64,000 bases of DNA from NCBI GenBank assembly GCA_016235675.1, contig JACRJN010000131.1, positions 1,779 through 65,778 of the forward strand, given 5' to 3'. Position numbers and translations under genes: made by a program. The notes below the pieces were generated by a model. It saw only the letters and a list, made by a program, of their open reading frames with translations, searched no databases and was not told where the DNA came from. Below are positions 2,361 through 60,410 of this stretch, one piece after another (position 1 is the stretch's first letter; every line of letters starts with the position of its first letter). This DNA comes from Candidatus Schekmanbacteria bacterium (lineage in GTDB: Bacteria > SZUA-182).

Positions 2361-4112
2361 ATGCAGGCAGGAAAAATAATCAAAGTGGCTGGCCCTTTGG
2401 TGGTTGCCGACGGCATGGTTGACGCCAAGATGTATGACGTGGTCAAAGTCGGCCTTGAGGAACTGATCGGCGAGATTGTGGAAATCAAAGGCGATAAAGC
2501 CTCGATTCAGGTCTACGAGGAAACGGGAGGCATCGGCCCCGGCGATCCGGTGATCACTACCGGTATGCCGCTTAGCGTCGAGTTAGGCCCCGGATTGCTG
2601 CAAAGCATTTACGACGGTATTCAGCGCCCGCTGGAATTGATCTACGGCAAGGTCGGGGATTTGATCACCCGCGGGGTTAACGTCCCCAGCCTGAATCGGG
2701 AAAAGAAATGGGCGTTTACTCCGACTGGCAAAACGGGTGATAAGGTGCAGGCCGGGGATATTTTGGGCACGCTGCCGGAAACCAGGGTTATTACCCATAA
2801 GGTGCTGGTTCCGCCCGGAATCGAGGGAGAGATCGTTAAGATTGCGGCAGGCGGCGAATACACCATTACCGATACCATCGCCCGCATTAAAACCAAAAAC
2901 GGTGAACAGGATATTTGTATGCTGCAAAAGTGGCCGGTGCGTATCAGCCGTCCCTTAAAGGGTAAGCTTTCGCCCAAAGAGCCGCTTTCCACCGGACAGC
3001 GCATTATCGACACCCTCTTTCCCCTGGCCAAGGGCGGAACGGCTTGTGTTCCCGGCCCCTTCGGTTCAGGCAAGACCGTAGTGCAGCATCAGTTGGCCAA
3101 ATGGGCATCTGCCGAGATTGTGGTTTATATCGGCTGCGGCGAGCGCGGCAACGAGATGACCGACGTTTTGATCGAACTGCCGGAGATCGAAGACCCCAGA
3201 ACCGGTGAATCGCTGATGCAGCGCACCGTTTTGATCGCCAACACCTCAAACATGCCGGTGGCCGCCCGTGAAGCCTCGGTCTATACCGGGATCACCCTGG
3301 CCGAATATTACCGCGATATGGGCTACCATGTGGCGCTGATGGCTGATTCCACCTCCCGCTGGGCGGAAGCCTTGCGCGAGATGTCGGGACGTCTGGAAGA
3401 GATGCCCGGAGAAGAAGGCTATCCGGCTTATCTGGCGACCAAGATCGCCGATTTCTACGAGCGCGCCGGTCGGGTCAACACCCTGGGCAGCAACGGCAGA
3501 GAGGGATCGATCAGCGTTATCGGAGCGGTTTCCCCTCCCGGCGGCGACATGTCCGACCCGGTGGTGCAGGCCACCCTCAAGGTGGTTAAGGTCTTCTGGG
3601 GGCTGGACGCCAATTTAGCCTACCGCCGGCATTTCCCCGCCATCAACTGGCTGCAAAGCTATTCACTGTATATGGACAACCTCAAGGATTACCTGACCGG
3701 AGAAATTGCCCGCGACTGGGTCACCATCCGCCAGAAAGCCATGGCGCTGTTACAGAAAGAGGCGGAACTGGAAGAAATCGTACGACTAATCGGCAAGGAC
3801 TCCCTCTCCCCTACCGATCAGCTAACCCTGGAAATCACCAAGATCATCCGCGAGGATTTTCTGCATCAGAACGCCTTCCACGCCCAGGACTCCTACACCT
3901 CGCTGAACAAGCAATATAACTTGCTGAAGCTGATTCTCACCGCCGAAGAACTGTTCCGCTCCGCAGTCGAAGCCAAAATTCCCTTAAAGCGCATCCTCTC
4001 CATCCCGGCCCTGGAAGAAATCGCCAAAGCCAAGTTTATCACCGAAGACAAACCGGAGGAGATCGAAGCCATCGGGCAGAGATTGAGGGAGCAGGTAGGG
4101 GGGTTGAAGTAA
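2361..4112 (+). CDS. ntpA: V-type ATP synthase catalytic subunit A
   Basis: 583 aa. Walker A GPFGSGKTV, GCGERGNEM and SRWAEALREMSGRLEEMPGEEGYPAYL motifs. Confidence 0.97.
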   Translation: MQAGKIIKVAGPLVVADGMVDAKMYDVVKVGLEELIGEIVEIKGDKASIQVYEETGGIGPGDPVITTGMPLSVELGPGLLQSIYDGIQRPLELIYGKVGDLITRGVNVPSLNREKKWAFTPTGKTGDKVQAGDILGTLPETRVITHKVLVPPGIEGEIVKIAAGGEYTITDTIARIKTKNGEQDICMLQKWPVRISRPLKGKLSPKEPLSTGQRIIDTLFPLAKGGTACVPGPFGSGKTVVQHQLAKWASAEIVVYIGCGERGNEMTDVLIELPEIEDPRTGESLMQRTVLIANTSNMPVAAREASVYTGITLAEYYRDMGYHVALMADSTSRWAEALREMSGRLEEMPGEEGYPAYLATKIADFYERAGRVNTLGSNGREGSISVIGAVSPPGGDMSDPVVQATLKVVKVFWGLDANLAYRRHFPAINWLQSYSLYMDNLKDYLTGEIARDWVTIRQKAMALLQKEAELEEIVRLIGKDSLSPTDQLTLEITKIIREDFLHQNAFHAQDSYTSLNKQYNLLKLILTAEELFRSAVEAKIPLKRILSIPALEEIAKAKFITEDKPEEIEAIGQRLREQVGGLK

Positions 4113-4118
4113 CATAGG

Positions 4119-4165
4119 GTAGGGTGGGCTGCGCCCACCATTTTGATGGGCACAGCCCACCCTAC
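4119..4165. repeat. R-D doublet: GTAGGGTGGGC TGC GCCCACC ... GGGCACAGCCCACCCTAC
   Basis: Two inverted GTAG-anchored hairpins, starting 7 nt after the ntpA stop. Confidence 0.9.
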
Positions 4166-4192
4166 AGGCTACATGAAAAAAAGGGTTGCTTT

Positions 4193-4432
4193 GTGGAGAT
4201 AAATTTTTCTCGTCATGCCAAGAGAAGAGCCAGGTTATACAAAATCCCTGACTCAACAATTCTTAATCTTTTGGAATCGAAAATTTGGAACCAGGGAAAT
4301 CATGAGATTACAAAAATTGTTGCGGGGATTAAATACCCATTGAAAATTGTGTTTAATGTTGAAGACCATATTTTAACTGTAATAACTTGCTATCCTTTAA
4401 AAAAAGGAGCTAAGGGTGAAAGTATATTATGA
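4193..4432 (+). CDS. DUF4258-like small protein (putative toxin)
   Basis: INFSRHAKRRARLY ... ILTVITCYPLKK pattern. In-frame GTG at 4193 chosen because upstream codons translate the R-D repeat. Overlaps the DUF2283 gene. Confidence 0.6.
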   Translation: MEINFSRHAKRRARLYKIPDSTILNLLESKIWNQGNHEITKIVAGIKYPLKIVFNVEDHILTVITCYPLKKGAKGESIL

Positions 4433-4643
4433 CGACGAAGCAGACGCCCTTTATCTAAAATTGGGAGAAGAAACGCCGGAAGGGGTAATAGAGCTAGCCG
4501 AAGGGGTTAATCTGGACACCACTGCTGAAGATAAGATAGTAGGGATAGAAATTTTGAATGCCTCCAAGAAGATTGATTTAAAAACAATATTATCTTATAC
4601 CCTGGAGTTTGAAAAGGATTTAATAACCCAAGAAGCGGCCTGA
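4416..4643 (+). CDS. DUF2283 domain protein (putative antitoxin partner)
   Basis: 75 aa. MKVYYDDEADALYLKLGE and KIVGIEILNASKK are hallmark DUF2283 motifs. Confidence 0.8.
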   Translation: MKVYYDDEADALYLKLGEETPEGVIELAEGVNLDTTAEDKIVGIEILNASKKIDLKTILSYTLEFEKDLITQEAA

Positions 4644-4650
4644 TAGTAAC

Positions 4651-4742
4651 GTAGGGTGGGCTGTGCCCACCAAAGGCTAACCAGGGCAATTTGAACAGCG
4701 ACATATGGGCGAAAAACAAAAGGTTGGCAAAGCCCACCCTAC
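4651..4742. repeat. R-D doublet with about 50-nt spacer
   Basis: GTAGGGTGGGCTGTGCCCACC at the left end and AAGCCCACCCTAC at the right end. Confidence 0.85.
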
Positions 4743-4771
4743 ATAAATAAAACTCAAGGAGGTGAGCACCC

Positions 4772-5323
4772 ATGCAGGGTTTGGCGATAAAGCAAAAAAA
4801 ATATACTTATCAGGACTATTTAAAAACCCCGGACGATATGCGGTATGAACTAATTGAGGGAGATTTAATAATGACACCGGCGCCATATATTCGACACCAA
4901 AGAATTTCCAGTAACTTGTTTTTCAAGATGAGAGATTTCACAAGCACCAATAATTTAGGCGAGGTTTTTTACGCTCCCTGCGATGTCTACTTAGACGATG
5001 AGAATGTTGTTCAGCCGGATATACTCTTCGTTTCCAAGGAGCGTCTGGAAATTATCACGGAAAAGAATATCCAGGGTGCGCCGGATTTGGTAGTGGAAAT
5101 TGTTTCGGAAGGAAATGCTTACCGGGACACCATACAGAAAAAAAGACTATACGCCCGTTTCGGGGTGAAAGAATATTGGATAGTGGCACCGGGGGAAAAG
5201 ATGATCGAACAATATCATTTGAATAAGCAGGGTTACCAATTGATTAGGACTTATTATCATGAGGATCATCTCATATCCCAGGAATTGCAGGATTTCACGA
5301 TTGAATTGAGGGAGGTTTTTTAA
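4772..5323 (+). CDS. Uma2 family (DUF820) endonuclease
   Basis: 183 aa. YELIEGDLIMTPAP, QPDILFV and APDLVVEIVSE..YRD...K..LYARFGVKEYW motifs. Confidence 0.85.
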   Translation: MQGLAIKQKKYTYQDYLKTPDDMRYELIEGDLIMTPAPYIRHQRISSNLFFKMRDFTSTNNLGEVFYAPCDVYLDDENVVQPDILFVSKERLEIITEKNIQGAPDLVVEIVSEGNAYRDTIQKKRLYARFGVKEYWIVAPGEKMIEQYHLNKQGYQLIRTYYHEDHLISQELQDFTIELREVF

Positions 5324-5328
5324 AAAAT

Positions 5329-5386
5329 GTAGTTACCTGATTTATCAGGGAACGGCCTGCTGGTACCCGATAAATCGGGTAACTAC
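5329..5386. repeat. R-H doublet: GTAGTTACCTGATTTATCAGG ... TACCCGATAAATCGGGTAACTAC
   Basis: Inverted GTAG hairpin pair. Second copy at 25117..25172. Confidence 0.9.
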
Positions 5387-5415
5387 AAATGGCAGCATAA
5401 CACAGGAGGAATAAA

Positions 5416-6816
5416 ATGCCGAAAGAATACCGAACTGTGGCCTCGGTTTCCGGACCGTTGATTTTAGTGGACAAGGTAGAAAGCATTAAATACGAAGAAC
5501 TGGTGGAAGTGGAACTGCCCGGCGAACAAATCCGTCTGGGCAAGGTACTGGAGGTCTCAGGAAATACCGCCCTGGTGCAGCTTTTCGGTACATCTACCGG
5601 CATCAATATCTATCAGAGCAAAATTCGCTTTCTGGGCAAGGGGATTGAACTGGGGGTTTCTCCCGATTTATTGGGACGGATTTTCGACGGCCTGGGACGC
5701 CCGATCGACAATGGCCCGCGCATTATCCCGGAAAAACGCCTGAACATCAACGGGAATCCGATCAACCCCTATGCCCGCGATTATCCCTCGGAGTTTATCC
5801 AGACCGGTATTTCCACCATCGACGGCCTAAATACACTGGTGCGCGGACAAAAATTGCCCATCTTCTCAGGTGCCGGTCTCCCGCACTCCCAAATGGCGGC
5901 CCAAATCGCCCGTCAATCCAAGGTTTTGGGCAAGGAAGAAGCCTTTGCCGTGGTCTTTGCCGCCATGGGCATCACCTTTGAGGAATACGAGTTTTTCCGC
6001 CAAGATTTCCAGAAATCCGGTGCGCTGGAACGCTCGGTGCTGTTCGTCAATCTGGCCAATGACCCGGCGGTAGAACGCATCGCCACCCCGCGAATGGCCC
6101 TGACCGCCGCTGAATATCTGGCATTTGAGAAGGATATGCACGTTCTGGTTATCTTAACCGATCTGACCAATTATTGCGAAGCCCTGCGCGAGGTTTCCGC
6201 CGCCCGCAAGGAAATACCCGGTCGCCGCGGTTATCCCGGTTACATGTATACCGACCTGTCCACGATTTATGAACGCGCCGGACGCATCAAGGGCAAAAAG
6301 GGATCGATCACCCAGATTCCCATTCTTACCATGCCGGAAGATGACAAAACCCATCCCATCCCGGATTTGACCGGTTATATTACCGAGGGACAAATTATCC
6401 TGGGACGGGCGATGCACCGCAAAGGCATCTATCCCCCAATCGATGTCTTGCCGTGTCTTTCCCGCTTGCGGGATAAAGGCATCGGCGAGGGCAAGACCAG
6501 GGAAGACCACGCCGGCTGGTCGAATCAATTGTTTGCCGCCTATGCCAGGGGTAAAGAGTCTGAAGAATTGGCGGTTATATTGGGTGAATCGGCTCTATCG
6601 GCAGCCGATAAAACCTTCCTTAAATTCGCCCTGGAATTTGAGCGGCGGTTTGTACAGCAAGGGGCCTATGAAGACCGGGCTATCGAGGAAACTTTGGCTA
6701 TCGGCTGGGAATTAATGGCGGCACTTCCGAAAGCCGAACTCAAACGGGTGAAAGAGGATCATATCGCTAAATATATGCCGGCGGGGAAAGAATTAGGCTT
6801 GAGGCTTGAGGCCTGA
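5416..6816 (+). CDS. ntpB: V-type ATP synthase subunit B
   Basis: 466 aa. [21 protein letters not shown] and [21 protein letters not shown] motifs. The last codons (GLRLEA) are encoded by the GGCTTGAG tandem repeat. Confidence 0.97.
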
Positions 6817-21575: not shown

Positions 21576-21592
21576 AGGGGCGAAAATTCTAT

Positions 21593-21815
21593 TAAGACGT
21601 AGCGCAGGGCTTTAGCCCCAATACTGTTCCCCTAACGTAGCGCAGACCTTTAGGTCTGCTCCGGAGTGCTCACAAAGCCACCCCATAAGCAGGGATAGAA
21701 GCCCTGCGCTACGTCTTAAGTGAACGGTATTGGCTTTAGCCCTGCTTCCGGACACACATCAAACCCGGTAGCCGGTAGCAGACCTAAAGGTCTGCACTAC
21801 GTTAGGGGAACAGTA
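21593..21815. repeat. R-A element whose first hairpin is interrupted by a second R-A element
   Basis: GTAG at 21599. The host hairpin GCAGG GCTTTAGCCC TGC is split. The right end is GCAGACCTAAAGGTCTGCACTAC (to 21800) plus GTTAGGGGAACAG. Confidence 0.85.
21619..21732. mobile_element. 114-nt R-A MITE-like element (TIR CAATACTGTTC.../...GAACGGTATTG) with a 10-bp target duplication
   Basis: GCTTTAGCCC at 21609..21618 and 21733..21742. Removing the element plus one duplicate restores the canonical hairpin GCAGGGCTTTAGCCCTGC. Confidence 0.8.
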
Positions 21816-57136: not shown

Positions 57137-57138
57137 GG

Positions 57139-57265
57139 TTCACTTAAGACGTAGCGCAGGGCTTTAGCCCTGCTTATGGCGGCTTTGGTAGGCACTCCGG
57201 AGCAGACCTAAAGGTCTGCTCTACGTTAAGTGAACAGTCTGCGCTACGTTAAGTGAACAGTATTG
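57139..57265. mobile_element. R-A MITE-like element at the recJ/cytochrome junction (left TIR lacks its first 8 nt; right end partly duplicated)
   Basis: TTCACTTAAGACGTAGCGCAGGGCTTTAGCCCTGC...GCAGACCTAAAGGTCTGCTCTACGTTAAGTGAACAGT CTGCGCTACGTTAAGTGAACAGTATTG. Flanked by GGATTAAGG at 57130..57138 and 57266..57274. Confidence 0.75.
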
Positions 57266-57288: not shown

Positions 57289-58773
57289 GTGTTAAAAAAG
57301 CAATTATTTTTTAGATTGTCGCTGGTTGTCGTTTTGGGATTTTATTTTATATGGCCGAATATCTTTTCCTGGGCGCAGGAAGAACCTGCTGCGATAAAAA
57401 CAGACAAACCGGAATTTGTGGAACCGGGTATGAATCCCAATGAGAACATACCCACTATCGATCAATTTGTTGTCCCGTCGGATCTGGCGCCTGCCGTAAA
57501 GGATATGGCGCCGCAAAAAAAAGAATCCGAAGCGGGTAAAAAGATAGAATCCGAAGCGCCGACATTACCCTCCGGCCTTCTCCCGGACAAAACACCGGCA
57601 GCCGCTCCTGTGGCACCGGAGATGCAGCCTACTTTAACGGACTGGAATAAAGAAAATTTACTGAAATCATATAGCGATTTTATGAAAATGATGTCTCCGA
57701 AACGGGATGGGATCAAATTGGAAGCGCAAACAACGGAAGCACAAGATAATCCGATTTGGAAATTTCATAGCTGGCTGCAAGACCAACTGGCAATTATGGA
57801 ACAAACCGGCGGAGAAACCGCCGGCGGCAAAGGCGGCCTGGAAGAACTGTGTTTTGTTTGCCATAACGGTAAATTGGTAGTCAACCCTAACTTCTCCGGC
57901 GATTATACCAGTATCAAGGATGTTTTTCAACTCACCAGCCGCCATCCGGTAAGAGCTGCCGATAAATCCAATTTCTACGATCCGCTGAATCCGGATGACC
58001 CGACCAAATCAGACCCGACCTGGGAACGCAAACTACAATGTACTACCTGCCATAATCCGGCGGTAGTTACCGGAAAAACCAAGGACGGCGGTTATCCCTT
58101 AACCCTGCCTACCGATCCCGAAGTCACCTGGACGCAAAAATTAATCGACGGCTGGCCTACTTTGGATAATCCACCCTGGCCTCATGACACCCCGCCCCGT
58201 CCGATAGTCTACGGGCGCCCCTATGCGGATGATCCCAATCCCGATGTGCCGGGGGACGAAAAATTGGGCCCCGATGCCACGGAATTACCTAATTTTACCT
58301 CCTATTGTCAAACCTGCCACCGGCAAATTTCCGGACGTTACGGCGTGAGCAATAACTATTCCCGCTTAAAATACGATCCGATCCGCTATATCAAGGGAGA
58401 TGGCGGCGGCAATGTTTCAACCCATGGTTTAGCGCGCGGCAGGGAAAGCAATACCCCACATTTAAAATTAAGAGAACCATTCTACTCTTTAAGATGCGAC
58501 GCAGAGGGAAATGTAGTTAACAATCTTTATCTGGCCTGCGTCGATTGCCATGAACCTCATGGCTCTTCCAATGCTTTTTTATTAAGAACGAAGGTAAACG
58601 GTGTAGCGGGTGTAAAAGCCGGGTATGACGGTAAATTTTTTACTTTATGTTCTAAATGTCACATTGTCGCCAATCCCTGGCCGGGCGGGTATCCGCACGG
58701 GTCTCCGGGGGATATGGCGGAAAGATCATGTATCCAGTGCCATAACCATTCATCAGGGGGGGGGCGTTTCTAA
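57289..58773 (+). CDS. Secreted or membrane-anchored hexahaem c-type cytochrome
   Basis: GTG start after AAGGAGGGG. Hydrophobic N-terminus. Six CxxCH motifs: CFVCH, CTTCH, CQTCH, CVDCH(EPHGS), CSKCH, CIQCH. About 190 aa Pro/Glu/Ala/Lys-rich linker before the haem domain. Confidence 0.85.
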   Translation: MLKKQLFFRLSLVVVLGFYFIWPNIFSWAQEEPAAIKTDKPEFVEPGMNPNENIPTIDQFVVPSDLAPAVKDMAPQKKESEAGKKIESEAPTLPSGLLPDKTPAAAPVAPEMQPTLTDWNKENLLKSYSDFMKMMSPKRDGIKLEAQTTEAQDNPIWKFHSWLQDQLAIMEQTGGETAGGKGGLEELCFVCHNGKLVVNPNFSGDYTSIKDVFQLTSRHPVRAADKSNFYDPLNPDDPTKSDPTWERKLQCTTCHNPAVVTGKTKDGGYPLTLPTDPEVTWTQKLIDGWPTLDNPPWPHDTPPRPIVYGRPYADDPNPDVPGDEKLGPDATELPNFTSYCQTCHRQISGRYGVSNNYSRLKYDPIRYIKGDGGGNVSTHGLARGRESNTPHLKLREPFYSLRCDAEGNVVNNLYLACVDCHEPHGSSNAFLLRTKVNGVAGVKAGYDGKFFTLCSKCHIVANPWPGGYPHGSPGDMAERSCIQCHNHSSGGGRF

Positions 58774-59774
58774 TGACGAATGAACTTGTGTTCGGCAGTG
58801 GCAGTATCATAGGGAAGAGTAAACCCATCAGGCATCTGTTTGGTCTCATCCCTTATTTGGCTGCCCAGGAAAATCCTGTTTTGATTCAGGGCGAAAGCGG
58901 CACCGGCAAAGAGCTAGTGGCTACCGCCATACATTCTTACAGTCAGCGTTCTCTGTCGCCGCTGATTAAAGTCAACTGTTCCGCCATAGATGAAACCTAT
59001 TTAGATGTCGAGTTATTCGGCGGGGTAAAAGAAACAGGAGAGGGGAAAAAAGAGGTAGCGAAGGGGTTATTCGAAATCGCCGACGGCGGCACAATTCTCC
59101 TGGATTGTATCGATAAATTACCCCCGGCGGGACAGGAAAAGCTCTCCCAGGTAATGAGCGAACATAAAATTCACCCCTTAGGTGTTCCGGAGATTAAGAA
59201 TATTAATGTACGGGTCCTGGCCACCACAGAATCTTCTTTAGCGGAGGCTGTCGGCCAGGGGGCATTTAATGAAGGTTTATACAACCAACTGCAAAATAAT
59301 GTCATCAGTATGCCGGCACTGCGCAAATTCCGGGAAGATATACCCTTGCTTGTCAAGCACTTTGCCACTAAATACAGCAAAAAACATAATAAATCAGTAA
59401 AAGGCATTTCGGCTGAAGCCTTGTCTATCTTGATGGAATACGACTGGCCGGGGAATATCAAAGAATTAGAGGAATGTATCGAGCAGGCTGTGATCATTGA
59501 GGATTTGGAAATCATCCAGGCGCACAGTCTGCCCTATGATTTGTTCCATACGGCGGAAAGCGCCCGTCATCGCCTGGCGGAGGAATATAATCTGCGCCGC
59601 CGCTTGAAGGCATTCGAGCGTCAATTGATCTTGCGCGCTTTAAACGAAACCAAATGGAAGAAGAAAGAAGCCGCTCAGTTAATGGGCATCGATCAGCGCA
59701 ATTTGAGCTATTTCTTAAGAAAGCATCACATTACCGATCCGGCCACCAGGGAAAAAGAGCGCGGGTATCTATAG
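58773..59774 (+). CDS. Sigma54-activator-like AAA+ / Fis-HTH protein with degenerate catalytic and sigma54-contact motifs, no N-terminal sensor domain
   Basis: GESGTGKE Walker A is intact. Walker B is GGTILLDCI (Cys in place of Glu). ELFGGVKETGEGKK replaces ELFGHEKGAFTGA. FNEGLYNQL replaces FRxDLxxRL. WPGNIKELEE and the C-terminal HTH are present. Confidence 0.8.
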   Translation: MTNELVFGSGSIIGKSKPIRHLFGLIPYLAAQENPVLIQGESGTGKELVATAIHSYSQRSLSPLIKVNCSAIDETYLDVELFGGVKETGEGKKEVAKGLFEIADGGTILLDCIDKLPPAGQEKLSQVMSEHKIHPLGVPEIKNINVRVLATTESSLAEAVGQGAFNEGLYNQLQNNVISMPALRKFREDIPLLVKHFATKYSKKHNKSVKGISAEALSILMEYDWPGNIKELEECIEQAVIIEDLEIIQAHSLPYDLFHTAESARHRLAEEYNLRRRLKAFERQLILRALNETKWKKKEAAQLMGIDQRNLSYFLRKHHITDPATREKERGYL

Positions 59775-59829
59775 CAGGACAGGCGTCCCGCCGGAAATTA
59801 TAAAATATTGTAGGGGCGGGGGTTTCCCC

Positions 59830-59966
59830 CAATGCTGTTGACTTAAGACGTAGCGCAGGGCTTTAGCCCTGCTTAAGACGCGGCATTTGACCCCTGTGGC
59901 TGTAGCAGACCTAAAGGTCTGCGCTACATAAACATCAAAACAAAATTCCTTAAGTCAACAGCATTG
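59830..59966. mobile_element. 137-nt R-A MITE-like element (TIR CAATGCTGTTGACTTAAGACGTAGCGCAG / ...CTTAAGTCAACAGCATTG) inserted in the loop of a GTAG hairpin
   Basis: 11-bp direct duplication GGGGTTTCCCC at 59819..59829 and 59967..59977. The host hairpin GTAGGGGCGGGGG TTT CCCCGCCC spans 59810..59981. Confidence 0.8.
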
Positions 59967-59996
59967 GGGGTTTCCCCGCCCTTTAATTAACTTAAG

Positions 59997-60057
59997 CCGT
60001 AGCCGTAGTGCCAGGGCTTTAGCCCTGGAAATTCAGCCCTAAAGGGCTTTAGACTAC
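59997..60057. repeat. R-B doublet with tandem CCGTAG x2
   Basis: CCGTAGCCGTAGTGCCAGGGCTTTAGCCCTGG...CAGCCCTAAAGGGCTTTAGACTAC. Confidence 0.9.
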
Positions 60058-60069
60058 GAAATTTAAGAG

Positions 60070-60410
60070 CTTATCCGTAAATAACCGTTACCTTTGGTTT
60101 CCCCCTTTAGCAAAGGGGGATTAAGGGGGATTTGCAAATTGTAATTTCCATAAAGAATTTGGCAGCGTTCTCAATCAGAGACCCAAAGCGTCATTGCGAG
60201 GCAGCCTTATCGCCGAAGCAATCTCATCCACACGCATGGAGATTGCTTCGCTTCGCTCGCAATGACACTTCGGAGTCTCCCTATTTCTACGCTACCAAGA
60301 ATTTAATCTTTTAACAATATGTCGTGTTCGAATAATTCTTAAGGTTAGATTCAATTTGAAAATCTCCCCAACCCCTCTTTGCCAAAGAGGGAAAAGTTAT
60401 TTACGGATAT
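60070..60410. repeat. R-I element (CTTATCCGTAAATAAC arms, CCCCCTTTAGCAAAGGGGG / CCCTCTTTGCCAAAGAGGG hairpins) interrupted by an R-C long-form copy at 60159..60298
   Basis: An uninterrupted R-I relative lies at about 31540..31660. The R-C copy runs TTGGCAGCGTTCTCAAT...CTACGCTACCAA. Confidence 0.8.

Follow-up and report, generated by a model that had tools for sequence, protein, structure and literature searches.

The 137-nt element at positions 59830-59966 of the DNA analysed here (a stretch of 64,000 nt from a Candidatus Schekmanbacteria bacterium, called the window in the following) is very probably a non-coding MITE with the ends of an IS4-type insertion sequence, which a DDE transposase pasted into the tip of a GC-rich hairpin, leaving the 10-11 bp target duplication that is typical of this family. 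Judged by its sequence, the element is a non-autonomous derivative of the IS4 subgroup in every defining feature tested. The observations that carry this reading are the anatomy of the element, the link between its termini and IS4 transposase genes, the length of the duplications and the consensus of the targets.

The element is small, non-coding and multicopy, as it contains no ORF of at least 50 aa within its 137 nt and belongs to a family with at least four copies in the 64 kb. Its left terminal inverted repeat, CAATGCTGTTGACTTAAG, is of the IS4-subgroup type and occupies 59830-59847 on the plus strand, and the right one, at 59949-59966 on the minus strand, is its perfect complement, CAATGCTGTTGACTTAAG being found at both ends over 18 bp with no mismatch. 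In short form the termini of the family are written as CAATRCTGTTSAC, and also as CAATRCYGTTSAC. Each terminus is adjoined by one copy of an 11-bp direct repeat, GGGGTTTCCCC, at 59819-59829 on the left and at 59967-59977 on the right, and the 64 kb contain this 11-mer nowhere else, with a shuffle expectation of 0.02. A continuation of the inverted repeat into these flanks was considered and rejected: the central TTT runs in the same direction in both copies, which makes them a direct duplication. The earlier note had described a 137-nt element with terminal inverted repeats and a perfect flanking direct repeat, all of which were found at their places, with the direct repeat nowhere else in the window; only its 13-nt version of the termini proved too short, since the inverted repeats extend to a perfect 18 bp. 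Its proposal that the long form behaves like a MITE, with a duplication from a staggered cut, agrees with the 18-bp repeats, the 11-bp duplication and the termini shared with IS4-type elements.

Inside its terminal repeats, the element carries two hairpins. The first is a GTAG-headed unit, GTAGCGCAGGGCTTTAGCCCTGC, at 59850-59872 on the plus strand, of which the window holds 7 copies. The second is its inverted partner, GTAGCAGACCTAAAGGTCTGCGCTAC, at 59902-59927 on the minus strand, where it is read as GTAGCGCAGACCTTTAGGTCTGC. Both hairpins are GTAG-headed, and together they make up a REPIN-like inverted pair. The terminal repeats of this copy differ from those of the other three copies in the window: each of the two has G at positions 5 and 11, where the others have A and C. 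Its cargo and its left junction TTAAGAC|GTAG are nevertheless common to the other copies. That both arms have changed alike suggests either conversion from arm to arm or adaptation to a different transposase.

The identity of the termini was approached with a scan of representative genomes for the 17-nt motif CAATRCYGTTSACTTAA, which was present, among the matches listed, in more than 118 genome stretches from many bacterial phyla (Acidobacteriota, Pseudomonadota, Desulfobacterota, Bacteroidota, Planctomycetota, Verrucomicrobiota and others). Opposed CAATRCYGTTSACTTAA ends were found at two kinds of distance, 100-230 bp in miniature elements and about 1.4 kb. In at least 18 loci, 16 of them from the genome scan and two from plasmids that were found through the transposase, the terminus is closely followed, on its inner side, by an IS4-family transposase gene, and the transposase-bearing elements with both ends present, among the loci listed, mostly measure 1405-1740 bp. 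An element of 1405 bp in the locus L080 encodes a 412-aa transposase that matches the Pfam models Nterm_IS4 (2.8e-22) and DDE_Tnp_1 (8.4e-18), as well as the NCBIfam model transpos_IS4_1 (3e-68), and the transposases of the full-length elements with the exact motif of the window are 54-74% identical among themselves. The hallmarks of the IS4 subgroup are ends of the form -AATR--------WTW, a length between 1400 and 1650 bp and 10-13 bp direct repeats (PMC2266710, Table 1), and the repeat of the window, C-AATG-CTGTTGAC-TTA-AG, agrees with this signature position by position. An insertion sequence with the same termini, which the earlier note expected as an autonomous parent, does exist in other genomes, where such parents encode an IS4-family DDE transposase; within the 64-kb window, a tblastn search with an IS4 transposase gave nothing significant.

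The nearest named relative of these full-length partners is the ISBvi1 family, with 54% identity (plasmids), of which one copy has ends CAATACTGTTCAG..., a length of 1455 bp and a 10-bp duplication, CGGCTAGACA. This family of the IS4 subgroup (PMC2266710) shares with the window element the initial 12 nt of its terminus, CAATACTGTTCA, together with the -AATR--------WTW signature and a 10-bp duplication with a central CTAG/TTAG. The window element differs in its length of 137 nt and in having GTAG hairpins instead of a transposase gene. A more distant comparison is offered by IS4 of E. coli, an autonomous element of 1426 bp with the end TAATGCCGATCAGTTAAG and with 18-bp terminal repeats, of which the left one agrees with the window repeat at 13 positions out of 18 and differs at 5. 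Its transposase is homologous to that of L080 (27% identical), and its duplication, of 11-13 bp in general, was 12 bp in the copy read.

The target of the insertion can be rebuilt by removing the element and one of the repeats, which leaves GTAGGGGCGGGGGTTTCCCCGCCC, a hairpin with a 10-bp stem and a 4-nt loop (-21.4 kcal/mol). In terms of this reconstructed fold, the GTAG head (59810-59813) and the outer 5' stem GTAGGGGCG extend over 59810-59818 of the plus strand, and the 3' stem CCCCGCCC, ending at 59981, and the TTTAATT that follows it extend over 59974-59988 of the same strand. The fold bears out the first reading of an insertion at the tip of a hairpin. That this target was, moreover, a GTAG hairpin is right for its form, with a GTAG head and a stem, and wrong for a repeated sequence, as it is single copy: a second copy of the exact sequence was searched for in the 64-kb window and none was found, so that the hairpin at 59810 was rejected as a member of a repeated family by sequence.

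This hairpin begins 40 nt past the stop codon of a gene for a sigma-54-type regulator (58773-59774), and its sequence, with UUUAAUU after the stem, suggests that it may be the terminator of that gene. The filled region is predicted to fold as one long stem-loop (-102 kcal/mol) with the original hairpin stem at its base, a model in which terminator function could survive the insertion. More generally, insertion at the tips of terminator or REP hairpins would lengthen the stem-loop without destroying it and is, for that reason, probably tolerated. A search for an orthologous empty site found none, the nearest relative of the neighbouring regulator gene being only 68% identical at the protein level, which is too distant for a comparison of intergenic sequence. 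The same surroundings hold other repeats. Directly downstream of the right duplication, 59981-60075 appears to be a degenerate copy of the family (TTAACTTAAGCCGTAGCCGTAGTGCCAGGGCTTTAGCCCTGG ... CAGCCCTAAAGGGCTTTAGACTACGAAATTTAAG), with 70% similarity to the left end of the 59830 element (repeat D2). The intergenic region of the element also contains, at 60096-60135, a hairpin TCCCCCTTT/AAAGGGGGA followed by two tandem units of AAGGGGGATT and, at 60183-60273, a 90-nt palindromic element (CCAAAGCGTCATTGCGAG ... CGAAGCAATCTC / GAGATTGCTTCG ... CTCGCAATGACACTTCGG).

Elsewhere in the 64-kb window, further copies of the terminus motif lie at 21619/21732 and 57265, and a degenerate version is present at 16000-16111. 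The second copy of the family (21619-21732, minus strand) sits inside the tip of a GTAGCGCAGGGCTTTAGCCCTGC hairpin and splits it, with a perfect 10-bp duplication, GCTTTAGCCC, at 21609-21618 and 21733-21742, which confirms the 21619 case of the earlier note. Uninterrupted GTAGCGCAGGGCTTTAGCCCTGC hairpins in other places of the window, four exact copies and two with one mismatch, are paralogous empty sites for this insertion. Its host is an older degenerate copy at about 21586-21815, with ends ..ATTCTATTAAGAC and GTTAGGGGAACAGTAAAGG, and because the split hairpin belongs to an older copy of the same family, the insertion at 21619 is a nested self-insertion into a cargo hairpin. In the third copy (57138-57265, plus strand) the right end is intact and the left end is without its first 7-8 nt; GGATTAAGG directly flanks both sides of this copy despite the truncation, and an internal 23-nt tandem duplication is found at 57214-57236 and 57237-57259. 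The fourth copy (16000-16111, plus strand) has degenerate termini and no clear duplication. A clean structure of ends plus duplication is absent from two of the four window copies, those at 57138 and 16000.

Flanking duplications were tabulated for 42 paired ends, taken from the listed loci and the window, with at most one mismatch allowed. Duplications of 10-12 bp were present in 24 of them, measuring 10 bp in 16 cases, 11 bp in 7 and 12 bp in 1, against 0.26% reaching 9 bp in a control where the left flank of one element was combined with the right flank of another, a difference that rules out chance repeats from G/C runs. The logo of the 10 bases outside 133 termini is the pseudo-palindrome GGGYTARNCC, and duplications of even length show G at positions 1-2, a T-A centre and C at positions 9-10. 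When the reconstructed empty sites were folded, the duplicated bases came to lie at the tip of a perfect stem of at least 8 bp in 5 of 24 cases, and in 3 of 22 once the two window cases that prompted the analysis are set aside. At random positions of the same loci, stems of at least 8 bp occurred in 0.2% and stems of at least 6 bp in 1.1%. The enrichment at hairpin tips has a binomial P of 6e-6 at the 6-bp threshold, part of which may reflect the survival of insertions, as the control positions were random in the genome, intergenic or not. In the remaining 19 duplicated sites there was no stem of 5 bp or more. Hairpin tips as targets of two of the four window copies and of five duplicated sites amount to a preference only, and not to strict REP-specific insertion. 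Two of the sites at hairpin tips deserve mention, one at a bidirectional terminator-like hairpin (L030) and another, GTAGGGGCGGGTTTCAAACCCGCCCCTAC, that closely resembles the target of the window and has an identical repeat variant (L104).

A different arrangement was seen in some miniature copies from other genomes (L054 2641-2798, L112 5360-5538, L123 4621-4792 and L048 4281-4457), where the target repeats are inverted and not direct, for example GACGGGGTTTATCC / element / GGATAAACCCCGTC. Such flanks could have arisen by recombination between two copies that had entered copies of one repeated target in opposite orientations.

As for the mechanism, an IS4-type DDE transposase supplied in trans would bind both 18-bp terminal repeats and excise or copy the element, the two 3'-OH ends of which would be joined to the target at cuts staggered by about one helical turn, and gap repair would then produce the direct duplication of 10-11 bp. 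We infer this chemistry from homology with IS10/IS50, and likewise the supply of the transposase in trans within the source genome. The two-fold symmetric complex of the transposase would prefer a pseudo-palindromic target that is G-rich, then T-A in the centre, then C-rich (GGGYTARNCC), and good targets of this type would be the tips of hairpins with a GC stem and a T-rich loop, such as the hairpin at 59810 and the GGGCTTTAGCCC hairpin of the MITE itself. Tips of GC-stem hairpins with T-rich loops do match GGGYTARNCC, which explains both insertions at hairpin tips in the window, the nested one at 21619 among them. The IS4 family has been linked with duplications that span one helical turn (PMC2266710), and Tn5/IS50 is documented to use palindromic targets in which the duplication has G/C at its ends (PMC1525189; see also PMC2577343). 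Two mechanisms had been put forward in the earlier note, mobilisation by a DDE-type transposase or a structure-directed insertion. The first gains support from the IS4 DDE transposase elements bounded by the same termini and from the duplications of 10-12 bp throughout the family; the second is not required, in view of the sequence consensus and of the many sites (19 of 24) that are not in hairpins. The misfit of the element with a RAYT/IS200 model was also well seen, with an 11-bp duplication and 18-bp repeats of the IS4 type both present, and as the long form rides on IS4-family ends, the conflict between a GTAG/REP repeat and a target duplication is resolved.

We consider it unlikely that structure itself directs the insertion, with the transposase or some other enzyme recognising an extruded hairpin, a cruciform or strongly bent DNA, inserting at the tip and leaving the sequence consensus in a secondary role. 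The excess of perfect stem tips of at least 8 bp (5/24 sites versus 0.2% at random, among them L030, L104 and both window cases) would be expected in that event, complementarity reaches past the duplicated bases at several sites, and some elements of the IS4 subgroup are reported to have strongly conserved target arms (PMC2266710); moreover, the consensus alone may not fully account for the over-representation of hairpin tips. However, the 19 duplicated sites lacking a stem speak against this view, a sequence consensus exists within the 10 duplicated bases themselves, and a symmetric target consensus is known for DDE transposases such as Tn5 (PMC1525189, PMC2577343). In addition, the controls were random and not intergenic, and both hairpins and surviving insertions are concentrated in intergenic DNA. 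Recognition of structure is a possible contributing factor beside sequence.

The pasting of an IS4-ended MITE into a hairpin by a DDE transposase has counterparts among known elements. ISRm22 of Sinorhizobium meliloti, which is of the IS4 family, and IS1397, ISKpn1 and ISPpu9/10 insert at the symmetry axis of REP sequences, such REP-targeting insertion sequences leave a direct repeat, and the target consensus of ISRm22 is palindromic (PMC1525189). Since insertion of an IS4-family element at REP axes had been described before (PMC1525189), our finding is less unusual than the earlier reading implied. In contrast to ISRm22, whose nine copies are all located in REPs with 6-bp repeats (PMC1525189), the family of the window has a minority of its sites in hairpins, a repeat of 10-11 bp and a MITE as the inserting element. 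MIC231 and IS231A of Bacillus cereus (cited in PMC2266710) are similar in that a non-autonomous element with IS4-family ends is moved in trans. The likeness extends to a duplication of 10-12 bp and a symmetric target, G-rich and then C-rich, whereas their subgroup is a different one with CAT... ends, MIC231 carries genes and these elements are restricted to the B. cereus group. IS231A reportedly prefers the target GGG(N)5CCC, a preference said to come from Hallet et al. 1994, and GGGGTTTCCCC fits this formula literally. By analogy, the 59830 element would work like the MIC231/IS231A cassettes and other bacterial MITEs.

The cargo leads to a broader and unlikely reading in which IS4-type MITEs carry REPIN or REP hairpins of their host as hybrids acted on both by a DDE IS4 transposase and by a HUH RAYT, and in which a preference for the tips of the cargo leads to nesting in the element itself and in other REPs. 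If true, the outer repeats would be served by the DDE IS4 transposase and the GTAG cargo by the HUH RAYT, and one would have to think of a repeated capture of local palindromes, or of a real recognition of hairpins or cruciforms by this clade of transposases. In this line, copies from other genomes of several phyla enclose other hairpin-forming sequences, REP-like by form, within their 17-18 nt termini. The window itself holds about 41 perfect GTAG-headed hairpins, which fall into at least six stem types such as GTAGGGTGGGCTGCGCCCACC, GTAGCACAGGCATCTTGCCTGTG and GTAGCGCGGGGGTTTATCCCCCGC, and those of the cargo type are written in short form as GTAGCGCAG. The region inspected for a RAYT gene, 3900-5500, contained none. 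Here, what appear to be the genes for the A and B subunits of a V/A-type ATPase are separated by two small ORFs (4124-4432 and 4772-5323) with GTAG-headed hairpins around these ORFs at 4119, 4651 and 5386, and this arrangement (4119-5390) may be an insertion into an operon.

It is very improbable that the short copies never moved and are the remains, in place, of full-length IS4-type elements that lost their interior, even if termini and duplications would look identical in that case. The four window copies occupy separate sites in 64 kb, and in alignment A1 they form a single family in which the non-coding cargo and the spacer are common to all. Between the two terminal repeats come first GTAGCGCAGGGCTTTAGCCCTGC, then about 30 nt of spacer and then GCAGACCTAAAGGTCTGCGCTAC. 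As independent deletions would not yield the same interior, decay in place is contradicted, and the shared cargo indicates that the short element itself was amplified. A similar architecture is moreover found in an unrelated metagenome contig. This contig came from a metagenome scan for the lineage-specific junction ACTTAA(N0-2)CGTAGCGCAG, which gave mostly chance matches, with an IS4-type terminus in 4 of the 120 matches listed; in one of these (L236) the element has a terminal repeat on either side and, between them, first a GTAG hairpin and then one that ends in CTAC, and it is flanked by a 10-bp duplication with one mismatch.

The least probable reading takes the whole long form for a REPIN moved by a RAYT, a HUH tyrosine transposase of the IS200/IS605 type, with flanks that are G/C-rich coincidences, and it is disfavoured: in spite of an interior with the REPIN architecture of inverted GTAG-headed hairpins and of the same hairpin pair without outer repeats at 16891-16946, the duplications begin precisely where the IS4-type termini stop and measure 10-12 bp in 24/42 family members across phyla, and these termini bound IS4 DDE transposase genes. 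Transposition of the IS200/IS605 type is not known to make a target duplication or to need terminal inverted repeats. REPINs, for which Bertels and Rainey 2011 is named as the source, have no IS-type terminal repeats and no target duplication either. With REPINs and GTAG-tagged REPs (PMC3733652) the 59830 element has in common a cargo made of an inverted pair of GTAG-headed hairpins, whereas its outer ends and its duplication are of the IS4 type. GTAG dimers embedded in longer palindromes had already been noted in some genomes (Di Nocera et al. 2013, PMC3733652). In its mobilisation the element is not a REPIN, though its cargo is REPIN-like.

Taken as an IS4-ended MITE, the element belongs to a clade that is noteworthy for a terminus of 17-18 nt conserved across phyla, for the REPIN-like cargo and for the self-nesting. 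The motif CAATRCYGTTSACTTAA offers a simple annotation marker, valid across phyla, for this clade of insertion sequences and MITEs and for their 10-bp duplications. The case described here illustrates how a preference for symmetric targets brings a DDE transposase to the tips of terminator and REP hairpins, and the REPIN-like cargo together with the self-nesting is of interest for the way in which short repeats build mosaic intergenic regions.
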